A stretch of DNA of 64,000 nt from Bacteroidetes bacterium CG12_big_fil_rev_8_21_14_0_65_60_17 (GTDB lineage: Bacteria > Bacteroidota > Rhodothermia > Rhodothermales > UBA10348), in assembly GCA_002787815.1 (NCBI GenBank), contig PCUY01000075.1, positions 11,406 to 75,405 on the forward strand, in the 5' to 3' direction. Made by a program: the position numbers and the translations under genes. Under the pieces are notes generated by a model. That model was not told the origin of the DNA. It made no database searches and saw nothing but the letters and a program-made list of their open reading frames with translations. Below, one piece after another: positions 10,127 through 35,107 of this stretch (the stretch's first letter is position 1; each line of letters opens with the position of its first letter).

Positions 10127-11635
10127 ATGATACGCATGCATGCCCACAGACTGGCTACGCTGGTCGTCCTCCTGCTCATCGGTTTCGGCGCAGCAGGGTG
10201 CGCCGTATCTACCAATCCGGTAACCGGAAACAAGCGCGCCTATGCGTACACCTGGCAGGAGGAAATCGCCATCGGGCGCGACGCGGATCCGCAGATCGTG
10301 GCGCAGTTCGGCAAGTACGGGTCCGATGAGCTTGAGGCGTACATTGATTCGCTCGGGCAGGCGCTGCTCGAGGTGAGCCACCTGCGGCGGCCGGGAGCGG
10401 ACCCCGAGTGGCAGGCGACGCCCTTCACATTCCGCGTACTCGATTCCCCGGTGGTGAACGCATTTGCCCTGCCGGGTGGATTTGTGTACGTGACGCGCGG
10501 ACTGCTCGCGCACCTGAACAACGAGGCCCAGTTGGCGGTCGTGCTGGGACACGAAATCGGACACGTGGCGGGCCGGCATGGATCGAAGCGCGCCATGAAC
10601 CAGATGTTCGGCCAGGCAGCGGTGCTGGCAGGAGCTGTCGGTGGACAGGCACTCTTCGGTGGGAATGCGGCGCAGAATGTATTGGGGCTCGGAAGCGATG
10701 TGGCGAATCTGATGTTCCTCTCCTATGGCCGGAATGACGAGCGGGAATCGGACGATCTGGGCGTGGAATATGCCTCACTGCTCGGGTACGATGCCGCCGA
10801 AGGCTCGGCGTTTTTCCGCTCACTTCGTCGCATGTCCGAAAAGTCCGGACAGGAAATACCGAGTTTCATGTCGACGCATCCGGATCCGGGTGAGCGCGAG
10901 CAGACCATTCAGCGCCTGGCTGCCGAATGGGCGGCGCAGGTACCGGGCAGTCGGCTGCAGGAGCGGCACTATCGCCGCATGACAAACGGCATTGTTTGGG
11001 GCGAGGATCCCCGCCAGGGATTTACGCGCGAGGGCATGTTCTATCATCCCGGACTGGCCTTTCAGTTTCCGGTGCCGGGCGGGTTCCGCATTATCAACCA
11101 GCCCTCACAGGTCGTACTGGTGTCGAGCAACGAGCAGGCATTCGTGATTTTCTCTATCGAGTCGAAGCATGCCACGGCCCGCTTGGCGGCCGATGCGTTT
11201 GCCGCGCAAGAGGGAATGACGGCTGTCACGAGCAGCCGCGCTGCGTCGACAGCGCTTCCGGGGTGGGTGGTGACGGCGACCGTTGCGCAACAGAACGGGC
11301 AGGAGCTCCGCGTCCGCGCGCACTATATCGAGTACAATGATCAGGTCTATGCGTTCACTGGAGTGGCCGCTGCTGCCGACTTCGATACCTGGAAAGGGCA
11401 GTTCGAATTGTCATCGAACAATTTCCGGCCGCTCACCGATCCGAAGGTACTGGCGACCGAACCCGTGCGCGTCTTCTGGCAGCAGGCGGCATTGACTGGA
11501 ACGTTCCAGTCGCTCGTTCAGGATACGTTGCCCGATGGGGTGGCGGCAGATGAGATGGCCATTGTGAACCAGGTGAATCTGGGCGACACCATTCCGCGCG
11601 GAACGCCTATAAAGCTCCTTCGCCAGGGGGAATGA
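10127..11635 (+). CDS. M48-family zinc metalloprotease lipoprotein (BepA/YfgC-like) with C-terminal extension
   Basis: Lipobox GAAGC; VNAFALPGG, HEIGH (HExxH), YGRNDERESD, STHPDP. Confidence 0.92.
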   Translation: MIRMHAHRLATLVVLLLIGFGAAGCAVSTNPVTGNKRAYAYTWQEEIAIGRDADPQIVAQFGKYGSDELEAYIDSLGQALLEVSHLRRPGADPEWQATPFTFRVLDSPVVNAFALPGGFVYVTRGLLAHLNNEAQLAVVLGHEIGHVAGRHGSKRAMNQMFGQAAVLAGAVGGQALFGGNAAQNVLGLGSDVANLMFLSYGRNDERESDDLGVEYASLLGYDAAEGSAFFRSLRRMSEKSGQEIPSFMSTHPDPGEREQTIQRLAAEWAAQVPGSRLQERHYRRMTNGIVWGEDPRQGFTREGMFYHPGLAFQFPVPGGFRIINQPSQVVLVSSNEQAFVIFSIESKHATARLAADAFAAQEGMTAVTSSRAASTALPGWVVTATVAQQNGQELRVRAHYIEYNDQVYAFTGVAAAADFDTWKGQFELSSNNFRPLTDPKVLATEPVRVFWQQAALTGTFQSLVQDTLPDGVAADEMAIVNQVNLGDTIPRGTPIKLLRQGE

Positions 11636-27891: not shown

Positions 27892-28869
27892 ATGGATGCC
27901 GGCGCCAAACAGCTCGATTTGTCCATCGTGATTCCCGTGCTCGATGAGGAGGCGTCGATTCCCGAGCTTGCAGACCGTATTCGTGGTGTCTGTGACGGCG
28001 CCGGATTCTCGTTTGAAGTCCTGTTTGTGGATGACGGATCGACGGACGATTCATGGGACGTGATCTCGGCCATGCACGAGCGCGATGAGCGCTTTCTGGG
28101 CATCCGCTTTCGTCGCAACTACGGCAAGTCGGCGGCACTGGCCGTCGGGTTCGAGCGTGCAACGGGCGCCTATGTGATTACGATGGATGCGGACCTCCAG
28201 GATGACCCGGCCGAAATACCGGGTCTGGTGACGCTTCTTGAAAGCGGATATGACCTGGTTTCAGGGTGGAAGCGCCGCCGGCACGATCCGCTCTCGAAGA
28301 CCATGCCGAGTCTGTTTTTCAATTTTGTGACGCGTCGTCTGTCGGGTATTGGACTGCATGACTTCAACTGTGGACTGAAAGCCTACCGGTTGGAGGTGGT
28401 CAAATCGGTCCGCCTCTACGGAGAGTTGCACCGGTACGTCCCGCTGCTGGCAAGTTGGGAAGGGTATACCCGGATTGGCGAGAAGGTCGTCGAGCATCAT
28501 CCGCGAAAGTACGGCGAGACAAAGTTCGGGCTCGAACGATTCATAAAGGGTTTTCTGGATCTGCTCACGGTCCACTTCCTGACGCGATTCACGGCGCGCC
28601 CGATGCATTTTTTCGGGACGCTCGGAACGCTGGCATTCATGGGGGGCTTCGTGATCAGCCTGTGGATATCGATCGACAAATTATGGTATGGCAATCCGAT
28701 CGGGGATCGGCCGCTGCTGCTCCTGGGTGCGTTGTTGATCCTGGTAGGTGTACAAATGTTCACCGTCGGTCTGGTTGGTGAAATGGTGGTTGTACCGCGC
28801 ATGCAGCGGACAGCCTCGTATGGAATAGCCGAGGAAACAAAGGCAGCGGAGCGTGCCGAAAGCCCGTGA
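27892..28869 (+). CDS. GT2 polyprenyl-phosphate glycosyltransferase (ArnC/DPM1-like) with two C-terminal TM helices
   Basis: SIVIPVLDEE, FVDDGSTD, RNYGKSAAL, MDADLQDDP, DFNCGLKAY. Confidence 0.92.
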   Translation: MDAGAKQLDLSIVIPVLDEEASIPELADRIRGVCDGAGFSFEVLFVDDGSTDDSWDVISAMHERDERFLGIRFRRNYGKSAALAVGFERATGAYVITMDADLQDDPAEIPGLVTLLESGYDLVSGWKRRRHDPLSKTMPSLFFNFVTRRLSGIGLHDFNCGLKAYRLEVVKSVRLYGELHRYVPLLASWEGYTRIGEKVVEHHPRKYGETKFGLERFIKGFLDLLTVHFLTRFTARPMHFFGTLGTLAFMGGFVISLWISIDKLWYGNPIGDRPLLLLGALLILVGVQMFTVGLVGEMVVVPRMQRTASYGIAEETKAAERAESP

Positions 28870-31022: not shown

Positions 31023-32738
31023 GTGCAGACAAAATACATTTTTGTAACCGGGGGCGTCACGTCGTCCCTGGGCAAAGGCATCATCTGTGCCTCTCTCGGG
31101 CGGCTTCTTGAAGACCGCGGGCTGCGGGTTACCATCCAGAAGTTCGATCCCTACATCAATGTGGATCCGGGTACCATGAATCCGTACGAGCACGGCGAGG
31201 TGTATGTCACGGACGATGGTGCCGAGACTGATCTGGATCTGGGCCATTACGAGCGTTTCCTGGGCGTTCCCACGTCGCAGGCAAACAACGTGACGACCGG
31301 ACGAGTCTACCTGCAGGTCATCAACAAGGAGCGCGCCGGCGCCTACCTGGGCAAGACGGTCCAGGTCGTGCCGCACATCATCGATGAAATAAAGCATTGG
31401 ATGTTGAAGCTCGGTGAGACGGGCGATTATGATGTGATACTCACCGAAATCGGAGGCACCGTCGGCGATATCGAAGGGCAGCCGTACCTCGAGGCCATTC
31501 GCCAGTTGCGCTACGAGCTCGGTGTGAGAAACACGCTCAACATCCACTTGACACTGGTACCCTTCCTCGAGGCAGCCGGCGAGGTCAAAACAAAGCCGAC
31601 ACAGCACTCGGTCAAGACGCTGCTCTCGTTCGGCCTGCAGCCTGACATCCTGGTGTGTCGCACGGACAGGCCACTCGATACGGATGTGCGCCGCAAACTG
31701 GCTCTTTTCTGCAACGTCGACGCGGAGGCTGTCGTCGCGTCCCAGGATGCGGAATCCATCTACGAAGTCCCCCTGCTCATGCGCGAACAGGGTCTTGACA
31801 GCATTACAGCGCGGCTCCTGCGTCTGGATGAGGATTTCAAGGACCGCTTCGCCGATGCGCCGAATATGGAAGACTGGGTGGAGTTCGTTCGCCGCCTCAA
31901 AGAGCCCAGGAAGAAAGTCCGTGTGGCGCTCGTTGGCAAGTACGTGGAGCATCAGGATGCCTACAAGTCCATCAATGAAAGCTTCATTCTGGCCGGTGCC
32001 TGGATGGGTGTGCAGGTCGAAGTCCGGGAAATCCTCTCGGACCTGGTGACGCCCGAAAATGTGGATGAGTTGCTGTCGGACGTTGCAGGCGTCCTTGTGG
32101 CACCGGGTTTCGGCGAGCGGGGCATTGACGGTAAGATTGAAGCTGTCCGGTATGCACGTGAGAACGACATCCCGTTTTTCGGTATCTGCCTGGGCATGCA
32201 ATGTGCCGTCATCGAATTTGCGCGCCACGTATGCGGATGGGACGATGCGCACTCAACGGAATTCGATCCGGATACGGAGCACCCGGTCATTGATCTCATG
32301 GAAGATCAGAAGGCCATTGCCGAGAAGGGAGGGACCATGCGCCTCGGTGCCTATCGGTGCCGACTTTCCCCGGGCACGCGCGCCAGGGACATATACGGCG
32401 AGGACGAGATCAGCGAGCGGCACCGGCACCGGTATGAATTGAACAATGTCCTGCGCTACAAGCTGGTGGAGCACGGTCTGAGACTGAGCGGAATCAATCC
32501 GACCCGTGACCTGGTGGAAATCGTTGAGCTACCTGATCACCGGTGGTTCATGGGTGTGCAGTTCCATCCTGAATACCGGACAACCGTAGGGAGGCCGCAT
32601 CCGCTTTTCGAGTCGTTTCTGAAGGCCACGTTGGACCGGGCTGAGGAAACCGGGTCCACGTCGAAGCCCAAACCACCAAAGCGCCAGAAAAAGATTCACC
32701 TTGCCACGTCGCGACTGCTCAAAGGCGACGCCGAATAA
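31023..32738 (+). CDS. pyrG: CTP synthase
   Basis: TGGVTSSLGKG, KFDPYINVDPGTM, KTKPTQHSV, GICLGMQ, ERHRHRYE, QFHPE. Confidence 0.97.
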   Translation: MQTKYIFVTGGVTSSLGKGIICASLGRLLEDRGLRVTIQKFDPYINVDPGTMNPYEHGEVYVTDDGAETDLDLGHYERFLGVPTSQANNVTTGRVYLQVINKERAGAYLGKTVQVVPHIIDEIKHWMLKLGETGDYDVILTEIGGTVGDIEGQPYLEAIRQLRYELGVRNTLNIHLTLVPFLEAAGEVKTKPTQHSVKTLLSFGLQPDILVCRTDRPLDTDVRRKLALFCNVDAEAVVASQDAESIYEVPLLMREQGLDSITARLLRLDEDFKDRFADAPNMEDWVEFVRRLKEPRKKVRVALVGKYVEHQDAYKSINESFILAGAWMGVQVEVREILSDLVTPENVDELLSDVAGVLVAPGFGERGIDGKIEAVRYARENDIPFFGICLGMQCAVIEFARHVCGWDDAHSTEFDPDTEHPVIDLMEDQKAIAEKGGTMRLGAYRCRLSPGTRARDIYGEDEISERHRHRYELNNVLRYKLVEHGLRLSGINPTRDLVEIVELPDHRWFMGVQFHPEYRTTVGRPHPLFESFLKATLDRAEETGSTSKPKPPKRQKKIHLATSRLLKGDAE

Positions 32739-33402
32739 CGAGGCCCGCGCGACCCACGATGGGCCATGAGGGTTCCGGGCCCGGGCCTGGCGTCGGGCCC
32801 GGGCGTACCTTCAAGTCCGTGCGTGGTGTAGTTGGATCGGCAGCCGTGAGTATCAGGCGGTCTCCGTAGCGTTGCAGTCGACGTACGGTGAACTGCCTGT
32901 TCAGCGCATGGATAATGAGATTCCCGCCCGGAATATCGCCGGATGACTCGGGCCAGCCCACGATGATGTCGTGCTTCTGTATGCCGTCGCGCGCCATGCT
33001 GTCGTCGGGCATGGTGATGTACGCCAACGTTTTGCCCTCGGCCTCGGCCGGCAGCATCTGCCTGTCTACCCAATATCCTTCCCGGGGATCGGGCCAGCCC
33101 GCACCGCGCGGAGCGGCAGCTTCCGGTATGAAGATGAGCCGGTTGGCAGGCGCGTCCCCACGGCTCCCCACCACGCGGATACCCCTCGCCGTTCCTTCTT
33201 CCACGTCTACATGTCCCTTGCGCTCCAGCTGAGCAACGAGCTTGACGGCACTTGTAACGCTGCGTACATCGAGTCTGTTTGCCAACTCCCTGTATGTGGG
33301 AGAGCGCCCATCCTCTGCAATGTGTGTTTCAATGGCGCGAAGGGCATCCCGCTGCCGCGTACTGAGAGCGCTTCTGTCGGGTGCAACATGATCTCCAAAC
33401 AT
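32719..33402 (-). CDS. lexA: LexA-family repressor (winged HTH + S24 domain) with the catalytic Lys replaced by Arg
   Basis: LSTRQ...SPTYRELA..L..RS......LERKG....GTARGIR; A101-G102-W-P; DS135M; TVR174R where LexA normally has TVKR. Confidence 0.8.
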   Translation of the reverse strand: MFGDHVAPDRSALSTRQRDALRAIETHIAEDGRSPTYRELANRLDVRSVTSAVKLVAQLERKGHVDVEEGTARGIRVVGSRGDAPANRLIFIPEAAAPRGAGWPDPREGYWVDRQMLPAEAEGKTLAYITMPDDSMARDGIQKHDIIVGWPESSGDIPGGNLIIHALNRQFTVRRLQRYGDRLILTAADPTTPRTDLKVRPGPTPGPGPEPSWPIVGRAGLVIRRRL

Positions 33403-33434: not shown

Positions 33435-33450
33435 GTGTACTTATATACAC
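33435..33450. promoter_or_regulatory. Candidate LexA-type operator 2, GTGTA-N6-TACAC
   Basis: gtgtacttatatacac, 31 bp from operator 1. Confidence 0.7.
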
Positions 33451-33459
33451 TAATTTACG

Positions 33460-33492
33460 TTATGCACACGTTATAAACTCGTTATCCACACG
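33460..33492 (+). promoter_or_regulatory. Array of three DnaA-box-like 9-mers with 11-bp period
   Basis: TTATGCACA-cg, TTATAAACT-cg, TTATCCACA-cg; the first and third match TTATNCACA. Confidence 0.7.
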
Positions 33493-33553: not shown

Positions 33554-33581
33554 TTGACTTTCGGACTTAAAGATGTACATT
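33554..33581 (+). promoter_or_regulatory. Sigma70-type promoter of the mraZ/dcw operon
   Basis: TTGACT-N16-TACATT. Confidence 0.6.
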
Positions 33582-33590
33582 AGCTGTATG

Positions 33591-33610
33591 GTGGGGAAAT
33601 GTGGGGAATA
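33591..33610 (+). promoter_or_regulatory. MraZ-binding direct repeats
   Basis: GTGGGGAAAT GTGGGGAATA, 10-bp period just downstream of the -10, like known GTGG/TGGG MraZ boxes. Confidence 0.7.
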
Positions 33611-33700: not shown

Positions 33701-34150
33701 ATGGCTCGTTTCAAGGGACAGGCTGAATACTCCGTCGACGCCAAAGGACGGGTTGCCATTCCGGCCAAGATGCGGGCCGCACTGAGTCCGGATGCGCAGC
33801 AGACATTTACGCTGACGAAAGGCTTTGAGCAGTGCATCTACGTGTACCCTCTCGACGAGTGGCGCATCCAGGAGGACAAGCTGGCCAGACTCAACAGTTA
33901 CGATCGGGAGTCGCGGCTGCTCGTGCGCATGATGCTCATGTGGGCCGAGGAAATTTCGCTCGATGGTCAGGGACGCGTATCCGTTCCCCGGACGCTCTCC
34001 GATTACGCAGGACTGAAGGACCGCGCGCTGATCATTGGTGCCATTGACCGAATTGAAATCTGGGATCCGGTCGTCTTCGAGGACTACCTCGCCGGGGCGT
34101 CCTCGAATCCTGAGGAGTTGGCTGAGCGCGTCATGGGGTCGGGACCATGA
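33701..34150 (+). CDS. mraZ: Transcriptional regulator MraZ
   Basis: FKGQAEYSVDAKGRV.IP and second repeat LDGQGRV.VP; IGAIDRIEIW. Confidence 0.95.
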   Translation: MARFKGQAEYSVDAKGRVAIPAKMRAALSPDAQQTFTLTKGFEQCIYVYPLDEWRIQEDKLARLNSYDRESRLLVRMMLMWAEEISLDGQGRVSVPRTLSDYAGLKDRALIIGAIDRIEIWDPVVFEDYLAGASSNPEELAERVMGSGP

Positions 34151-34171: not shown

Positions 34172-35107
34172 ATGCTTGATTACGCTACGCCATATCACGC
34201 ACCTGTTCTTTGTCATTCTGTTGCTGACCGACTCATCACGGACCCCGATGGTGTGTATGTCGATGCGACGCTGGGCGGAGGAGGACATACGCACGCGCTG
34301 TTTGATGCGCTGGGCGACGAGGCGCGTGTGATAGGCCTGGACCGCGATCCGGAGGCACTCGAAACGGCCACGGCACGGCTTGAATCGGCTGGATACGGCG
34401 ACCGGTTCATGCCGGTACGAGGCACGTTTTCAGACATGGAGGAAGTGATCCGGGCGGAGGGCCTGCAAAGCGTATCCGGCATCCTCATGGACCTGGGCGT
34501 TTCGTCCCATCAACTGGACGACGGGCAGCGGGGCTTCAGCCACCGCCTGTCAGGACCGCTCGACATGCGCATGGACCAGACGAGCGGCGAACCGGCTTCG
34601 GCATTCCTGGACAAGATGGACGAGGCTGAACTGGCCCGCGTGCTTCGTGTCTGGGGGGAGGAACCGATGGCCGGACGAATGGCACGTGCCATTCTGAGGG
34701 GGCGCCCCTTGCGCAGTACGACCGATCTGGCCGACGTCATCCGCGAGGAGGTGCCGCCGCACAAGGTTTCCAAGTCATTGGCTCGCGTTTTCCAGGCTCT
34801 GCGTATCGCCGTCAACGGGGAAATGGACGAATTGCGGCGCGCACTGGAGGCTGCCACAAGCCTGGTTGCTCCGGGCGGGCGACTCGCCGTCATCAGTTAC
34901 CACTCGCTCGAGGACCGACCCGTGAAGCGCTACCTGCGCAGCGGCCATTTTGACGGTGAAATCCGTCGGGACCTGTACGGCAACGCGCTCTCTCCCTGGC
35001 GGGACGTGACGCGGGGCGCCATCATGGCCGATGAAACGGAAACAGCAACGAACCCGAGAGCCCGGAGCGCGCGACTGCGCGTTGCCGAGCGCACTACCTG
35101 CACCTGA
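34172..35107 (+). CDS. rsmH: 16S rRNA m4C1402 methyltransferase RsmH (MraW)
   Basis: HAPVL, DATLGGGGH, DLGVSSHQLD, FQALRIAVN.E, ISYHSLEDR, NPRARSARLR. Confidence 0.96.
   Translation: MLDYATPYHAPVLCHSVADRLITDPDGVYVDATLGGGGHTHALFDALGDEARVIGLDRDPEALETATARLESAGYGDRFMPVRGTFSDMEEVIRAEGLQSVSGILMDLGVSSHQLDDGQRGFSHRLSGPLDMRMDQTSGEPASAFLDKMDEAELARVLRVWGEEPMAGRMARAILRGRPLRSTTDLADVIREEVPPHKVSKSLARVFQALRIAVNGEMDELRRALEAATSLVAPGGRLAVISYHSLEDRPVKRYLRSGHFDGEIRRDLYGNALSPWRDVTRGAIMADETETATNPRARSARLRVAERTTCT

Follow-up and report, generated by a model that had tools for sequence, protein, structure and literature searches.

Repressors of the LexA family are defined by regulated self-cleavage. The LexA protein of Synechocystis sp. 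PCC 6803 (Sll1626) lacks the Ala-Gly site of cleavage and the catalytic Ser-Lys dyad's serine; autocleavage is not known for it, and DNA-repair genes are not regulated by it (PMC4759255). IrvR of Streptococcus mutans retains Ser224/Lys260 together with Ala-Gly, and its function requires constitutive autocleavage (PMC7101444). The non-canonical, CI-like LexA of Bacteroidetes (COG2932) features a phage CI-type helix-turn-helix (PF01381), keeps Ala-Gly as well as the Ser-Lys pair, and governs a real SOS regulon (PMC8565304). For the LexA of Balneolaeota, the binding motif TTACACATATTTTWTACATA was validated by electrophoretic mobility shift assay (EMSA; PMC7739468). Here, we describe a LexA-like protein, termed pseudo-LexA, encoded within a stretch of 64,000 nucleotides (the window; positions 11,406 to 75,405 of contig PCUY01000075.1) from the Rhodothermales member Bacteroidetes bacterium CG12_big_fil_rev_8_21_14_0_65_60_17. 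It represents a large, old branch of the family that appears to have kept the LexA fold and replaced the dyad, featuring an invariant arginine and a new Asp-Asp motif, and that occupies a single, fixed place on the chromosome, namely where the cell-division gene cluster (dcw) begins. The features of the locus are compiled in Table 1.

Both domains expected of a LexA protein were identified in the window protein by means of Pfam, namely LexA_DNA_bind and, with a weak but significant score (31.8 bits compared to a cut-off of 23.3), Peptidase_S24. Its score against the lexA equivalog model TIGR00498 (73.1 bits) is below the cut-off of 110.95, as are those of typical pseudo-LexA members (98–100 bits). 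Alignment with E. coli LexA structures using HMMER placed ‘ddSm’ over ‘gmSm’ (Ser119) and ‘ftvRRl’ over ‘vtvKRl’ (Lys156), and MAFFT concurred in equating Ser135 (D134-S135-M136) with Ser119 and Arg174 (F171-T172-V173-R174-R175) with Lys156. The Ser-Lys dyad is incomplete in this protein, Ser135 being present and the Lys156 position being occupied by Arg174. The codons and both alignments thus bear out the preliminary description of this DNA, which had reported arginine (TVRR, CGT) instead of the catalytic lysine. A read error, already judged unlikely there, can be discounted, because CGT differs from the lysine codons AAA and AAG at all three positions and the arginine is invariant in orthologues. 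The same description had noted an Ala-Gly scissile site and a serine nucleophile at LexA-like spacing; the equivalence holds for Ser135 and is insecure for the cleavage site. E. coli Ala84-Gly85 was aligned to A96-A97 by HMMER and to A101-G102 (within R99-G100-A101-G102-W103-P104) by MAFFT; the assignment of A101-G102 as the scissile site is insecure because the loop in question (residues 95–108) is variable, of low model confidence, and aligned discordantly by the two programs.

With the window protein as the query, copies were detected in 71 of the 151 order-level genomes that were searched, and 27 copies were extracted, almost all of which read GDDGM in place of the LexA G-x-S-M and V/I/A-R-R in place of V-K-R. 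The preliminary description had proposed an alignment of orthologues to establish whether the arginine is fixed. It is, both in 19/19 order-wide copies from approximately 15 families (alignment A2), where D133, G140, and D145 are likewise invariant, and in 79/79 database proteins (alignment A4), where R174 is accompanied by invariant D133, D134, M136, K143, and D145. Position 135 is glycine in at least 90% of these 79 proteins. Furthermore, 1.84 billion representatives were searched exhaustively using HMMER, which yielded 127 hits at E ≤ 1e-10. Among the approximately 120 full-length top hits that were typed, 72 were canonical (Ala-Gly, G-x-S-M, V-K) and 37 were of the Arg-type, the latter carrying glycine (22), alanine (8), serine (6), or threonine (1) at position 135. 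No conserved Ala-Gly was found in the family alignments outside the closest relatives of the window protein, and Ser135 and the loop Ala-Gly co-occur in one subclade (G000, G076, G151, and P0002–P0004). The view of an otherwise intact LexA site bearing a single substitution is therefore not supported, since the serine of LexA corresponds to Gly or Ala in the family and a conserved Ala-Gly is missing. The window protein (PDDSM, TVRR) carries the family signature, Asp-Asp-[Gly/Ala/Ser]-Met plus arginine at the lysine position. Owing to the conservation of D133, D134, M136, K143, D145, and R174, the C-terminal domain appears to be under selection and not decaying.

Identity values for the window protein amount to 70% within its own genus and approximately 28% between genera; a locus scan with this single protein retrieved only two metagenome-assembled genomes (MAGs), both of the same genus, and the closest genomes are Bacteroidota MAGs. 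Arg-type members deposited under the names ‘LexA family transcriptional regulator’, ‘S24 family peptidase’, and ‘repressor LexA’ originate from Rhodothermales, Rhodocaloribacter litoris, Salinivenus, and Rhodothermaceae. An NCBIfam model specific for the pseudo-LexA family was not found, nor was a description of the family found in the literature searched. Labels such as ‘repressor LexA’ or ‘S24 family peptidase’ would mislead the reconstruction of SOS regulons in Rhodothermia, and recognition of pseudo-LexA corrects them.

The relationship between both LexA types was assessed in a maximum-likelihood tree of 59 sequences, which included E. coli LexA, the canonical copies of the window's GTDB family, and LexAs of other classes. 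All canonical LexAs fell into a single clan (support 100/99), from which every Arg-type copy was separate. The window protein grouped with those of genomes G151 and G076 (99/97), followed by G004 (100/99), and this group was nested in a seven-member clade of its own GTDB family (98/91), the remaining members of which feature Gly or Ala at position 135. Since the window clade is nested among Gly- or Ala-bearing copies, parsimony indicates that Ser135 of the window genus is probably a secondary change, for which one transition (GGC to AGC) is sufficient. Similarly, the Ala-Gly in the Ala/Gly/Pro-rich loop of this genus is probably fortuitous. Given the Gly or Ala in place of the LexA serine in the family, the missing conserved Ala-Gly, and this nesting, the C-terminal domain appears to be an old pseudo-protease rather than a tuned protease. 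Long branches in the tree reflect fast evolution of pseudo-LexA in the window genus.

The structure was modelled with AlphaFold2 (AF2) on an alignment of 79 sequences; a run with four sequences, reaching a predicted local distance difference test (pLDDT) value of 49.8, was discarded. The retained model achieved a pLDDT of 80.7, with values >90 for the winged helix-turn-helix and 82–92 for most of the C-terminal domain. Low confidence was confined to the linker loop (residues 95–108) and a Pro/Gly-rich insert (residues 203–213). This insert, PGPTPGPGPEP (32764-32796), exceeds the corresponding stretch of the closest orthologues in length and is predicted to be disordered. Among PDB entries, Foldseek ranked full-length LexA structures highest as matches of the model (E 3.5e-14), and TMt values of 0.67–0.84 were obtained for LexA C-terminal domains. 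According to the model, the LexA fold is retained in pseudo-LexA. A replacement charge network may occupy the former active site, as hinted at by the invariant Asp133-Asp134, Lys143, and Arg174.

Re-searching 30 order-level loci (L004–L033) gave a pseudo-lexA copy in 29, and in 28 of these the gene is divergent from mraZ-rsmH, pyrG often being located on the other side. In the window, pyrG (31023-32738, +) and pseudo-lexA overlap tail-to-tail by 20 bp (32719-32738). A phylum-level profile survey also detected Arg-type copies beside mraZ, again in divergent orientation, in other Bacteroidota classes (families f56 and f60). In family f47, an Arg-type copy was present and no mraZ was detected at the locus; families f44 and f57 yielded canonical LexAs only, none of them beside mraZ, and the Balneolales-like class-mates gave canonical-type matches only. 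Within the window's own family, pseudo-lexA is present in four genera and absent from the others, pyrG directly abutting mraZ in those cases. The position beside mraZ in 28/29 loci and in other classes is consistent with a link to division control, as had been suggested in the preliminary description.

Two palindromes precede the start of the gene in 22/27 loci, their spacing being 31–32 bp in most cases and 54 bp in three. At the same spot, GTGAA-N6-TTCAC occurs elsewhere in the order, and TGTA-N6-TACA-type variants occur in the window's family, a difference that parallels the separate, long-branched protein clade of this family. Upstream of mraZ in family genomes devoid of pseudo-lexA, such palindromes were found in 0 of approximately 20 cases. 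Moreover, GGTGAA-N6-TTCAC was encountered in five complete Rhodothermales genomes in this intergenic region alone, with two sites each, two hits with GC-rich spacers being the exceptions. Since the palindromes occur together with the gene, vary in step with the protein, and are restricted to the locus, they are regarded as putative operators of pseudo-LexA itself, which would make it an essentially local regulator.

Further occurrences of the pattern were recorded in the window genome. Twin boxes of the GTGTA-type, 32 bp apart, are located in an AT-rich island at C11:31093-31140, over the start of an open reading frame (ORF) for a lipoprotein-like product of 529 amino acids. This ORF has no Pfam match, and its twin boxes are conserved in congener G076 (L114); the site may be an additional target in the window genus. 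Exact GTGTA-N6-TACAC matches on C19, C21, C39, C52, and C74 were rejected as operators, being situated in GC-rich coding sequence and probably due to chance or codon usage; some matches of this kind recur in congeners, probably through gene orthology. A copy with one mismatch, GTGTACAAATGTTCAC, is found at window positions 28748-28763, and GC-rich coding sequence at other places of this genome and of congeners contains exact GTGTACATTTGTACAC-type copies; such copies may be bound or may simply reflect codon usage.

Promoters in the region between pseudo-lexA and mraZ were assigned from the Bacteroidota-type consensus alone. Operator 1 spans the leader up to the ATG and operator 2 adjoins the candidate -7 element of pseudo-lexA, which would be the classic arrangement for autorepression. 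DnaA-like boxes, situated between these operators and the candidate mraZ promoter, were identified with at most one mismatch in 23/27 Rhodothermales loci, compared to approximately 0.06 expected by chance per locus. Such a box is retained upstream of mraZ in many genomes without pseudo-lexA, and a DnaA input to the dcw promoter is suggested. At least two MraZ-type GTGGGG repeats are present in 24/27 loci. Within this arrangement, an effect of pseudo-LexA on dcw is plausible.

Table 1. Coordinates of the pseudo-lexA gene, its domains and diagnostic codons, the control region, and the adjoining dcw genes in the window.
Feature	Position	Strand	Remarks
pseudo-lexA gene	32719..33402	-	227 amino acids + stop; ATG at 33402; MFGD start conserved across orthologues
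LexA-type winged helix-turn-helix, residues 11-74 (N-terminal)	33181..33372	-	PF01726 E 2.8e-13; AF2 pLDDT 92-97; Foldseek 1lea TMt 0.86
S24-fold C-terminal domain, residues 110-197, without Ser-Lys dyad	32812..33075	-	PF00717 E 1.3e-7; TMt 0.67-0.84
Ala101-Gly102, variable loop equivalent to LexA cleavage-site region	33097..33102	-	conserved in closest relatives only
Ser135 codon AGC (E. coli Ser119 position)	32998..33000	-	Gly there in at least 90% of family
Arg174 codon CGT (E. coli Lys156 position)	32881..32883	-	Arg invariant in family
Putative operator 1, perfect palindrome GTGTA-N6-TACAC, abutting start codon	33404..33419	.	
Putative operator 2, perfect palindrome GTGTA-N6-TACAC, 31 bp from operator 1, abutting candidate -7 element	33435..33450	.	
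Candidate pseudo-lexA promoter TTT-N17-TAAATTAG, weaker pattern	33450..33477	-	consensus only
Two DnaA-box-like 9-mers, TTATGCACA (33460-33468) and TTATCCACA (33482-33490)	33460..33490	+	
Candidate mraZ promoter TTG-N19-TACATTAG	33554..33583	+	consensus only
MraZ-type direct repeats GTGGGGAAATGTGGGG, just 3' of candidate mraZ promoter	33591..33606	+	
mraZ, first dcw gene, divergent from pseudo-lexA	33701..34150	+	
rsmH, after mraZ	34172-35107		

The genome harbouring the window (2.9 Mb, 90 contigs) encodes three S24 domains. A second, canonical lexA, the presence of which the preliminary description had proposed to check, was found just downstream of recO (C6:23370-24020, minus strand); its product of 216 amino acids has the Ala-Gly, Ser, and Lys residues intact (ITAGG, GNSM, and SLKRV) and shares approximately 22% identity with the window protein. 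Canonical LexA is present in 35/35 genomes of the GTDB family, with 71–90% identity. The third S24 ORF (C15:16661-17092, minus strand), cut by a contig end, keeps both Ser and Lys (GHSIEP and YTVKRY).

Across the family, canonical lexA promoters feature ATATGT-W-ACATAT or direct TATATGT repeats, resembling the Balneolaeota motif TTACACATATTTTWTACATA (PMC7739468). The canonical lexA on C6 bears the motif ATGTGTGTAACATAT, and several ATATGT half-sites precede an imuB-like ORF (C74:123750-123850); taken together, these sites suggest that this Rhodothermales genome carries an SOS box of the Balneolaeota type. A strict palindromic SOS-box pattern gave few hits, the motif appearing as variable direct or inverted ATATGT half-sites. 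In the intergenic region between pseudo-lexA and mraZ, the canonical SOS motif was not found. From sequence comparison, the interpretation is supported that pseudo-LexA does not act as the SOS repressor and that the separate canonical LexA serves this response.

We consider it likely that pseudo-LexA acts where the division cluster begins, as a local, dimeric repressor that is non-cleavable and autoregulating, probably tuning the divergent dcw promoter. That the protein binds DNA, acts as a repressor, is not cleaved, and has some influence on dcw is what we infer from the residues, the synteny, and the operators described above. Mechanistically, dimerisation would be the task of the dead protease domain, which might also bind or sense a partner or ligand. 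Two dimers would cooperatively occupy the pair of 16-bp palindromes, which are separated by three helical turns and would cover the transcription start and leader of the gene, resulting in autorepression and probably in modulation of the divergent mraZ/dcw promoter region. The SOS response would be left to the separate canonical LexA with its different box. A more far-reaching version, put forward tentatively and rather doubtful at present, regards pseudo-LexA as an ancient dedicated dcw regulator of Rhodothermales and other Bacteroidota classes, derived from a LexA duplicate that gave up self-cleavage. The intergenic region, with its DnaA boxes and MraZ repeats, would then be a three-factor region coupling the replication or cell-cycle state, and not DNA damage, to the division genes, and the vestigial cleft (Asp-Asp/Arg/Lys143) might function as the signal receiver. 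Several observations weigh against a non-cleavable local repressor of dcw. The second twin-box site in the window genus (C11:31093/31125) means that purely local action may fail; with approximately 100 bp between the operators and the candidate mraZ -33 element downstream of them, it is not obvious that dcw would be repressed directly; and the window genus possesses both Ser135 and the loop Ala-Gly, in addition to the family-specific invariant Lys143, which makes residual or regained cleavage conceivable. In the window genus, self-cleavage might accordingly be pH-shifted or regained, Ser135 attacking Ala101-Gly102 with Arg174 or Lys143 as the base and release being caused by high pH or a RecA-independent trigger. 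Besides the co-occurrence of Ser135 and Ala-Gly in the same subclade, the spacing is LexA-like (34 and 39 residues, compared to 35 and 37 in E. coli), and in the K156R variant of E. coli LexA, autodigestion reportedly persists to some extent only when the pH is very high. Cleavage of Anabaena LexA is described as pH-dependent and RecA-independent in work cited in PMC4759255. However, Arg174 is also fixed in lineages without any serine, so it was hardly selected as a base, and arginine, with its pKa, would be ill suited as a general base at the pH of the cytoplasm. In addition, Ser135 is only one transition away from the family's glycine and is nested among Gly/Ala copies, and the loop is so rich in Ala, Gly, and Pro that an Ala-Gly dipeptide is likely to arise by chance. 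A101-G102 is not paired with Ala84-Gly85 by HMMER. We therefore regard pH-shifted or regained cleavage as very improbable. Regarding the preliminary proposal of a non-cleavable or pH-shifted repressor, the first part very probably applies, and the second does not fit a family that mostly lacks the serine and has no conserved Ala-Gly.

Involvement of pseudo-LexA in the SOS response as an accessory component, in which canonical LexA or a different S24 protein would cleave it in trans or sequester it by heterodimerisation, or in which canonical LexA would bind its operators, would render division control damage-inducible. SOS-controlled inhibition of division is a common theme; both LexA types coexist in the same genomes and share the S24 dimerisation fold. 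Nevertheless, the operator is unlike the canonical lexA promoter motif and the imuB-like half-sites, most members have no conserved scissile bond, and the two LexA types, with approximately 22% identity, belong to separate clans, so that this arrangement appears unlikely. Decay of a duplicate or faulty assembly, with no function in either case, could explain the fast evolution in the window genus (identity of 70% among congeners, long branches) and the loss of the gene in several genera of its family. Such an origin is hardly credible in view of an intact frame and a start conserved in dozens of genomes, invariant Arg and other residues, synteny and twin operators conserved order-wide and beyond, and a confidently predicted fold; sequencing error or a pseudogene is ruled out by conservation. 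If the local repressor proposed here indeed controls dcw, it would represent a new bacterial division regulator in a little-studied phylum, in which a protease domain is re-used as a non-catalytic regulatory module.

Among the systems described so far, canonical LexA (E. coli; TIGR00498; MEROPS S24) shares with pseudo-LexA the domains PF01726 and PF00717, provides the best sequence and structure matches, and likewise features an operator palindrome spaced as in E. coli (TGT-N8-ACA) and tandem operators at its own promoter. In contrast to canonical LexA, pseudo-LexA has an invariant Arg instead of Lys156, mostly Gly or Ala instead of Ser119, no conserved Ala-Gly, and a score below the TIGR00498 cut-off. 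In five complete genomes, its putative operator is essentially confined to its own mraZ-side locus rather than distributed among DNA-repair genes, and it coexists with a true LexA. The latter, the Balneolaeota/Rhodothermia canonical LexA in the same genome, is a catalytically intact paralogue whose box is unrelated to GTGTA-N6-TACAC. The nearest precedent for a LexA outside the SOS response is the Synechocystis protein, and its likeness to pseudo-LexA is functional only. It is the sole LexA of the cell with a broad regulon, and loss of the lysine was not reported for it (PMC4759255), whereas pseudo-LexA is a Lys-to-Arg paralogue accompanying a working LexA and apparently dedicated to one dcw intergenic region. 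IrvR and HdiR, variant or SOS-independent LexA-like local repressors, are similar in being RecA-independent S24 repressors with an adjacent divergent gene as the main target (PMC7101444); unlike IrvR, pseudo-LexA does not possess the dyad. The CI-like LexA of Bacteroidetes belongs to the same broad phylum and also has an S24 domain, but pseudo-LexA differs from it by the LexA-type winged helix-turn-helix and the missing dyad. None of the compared systems combines an invariant Lys-to-Arg replacement, a coexisting working LexA, and a fixed linkage to mraZ.

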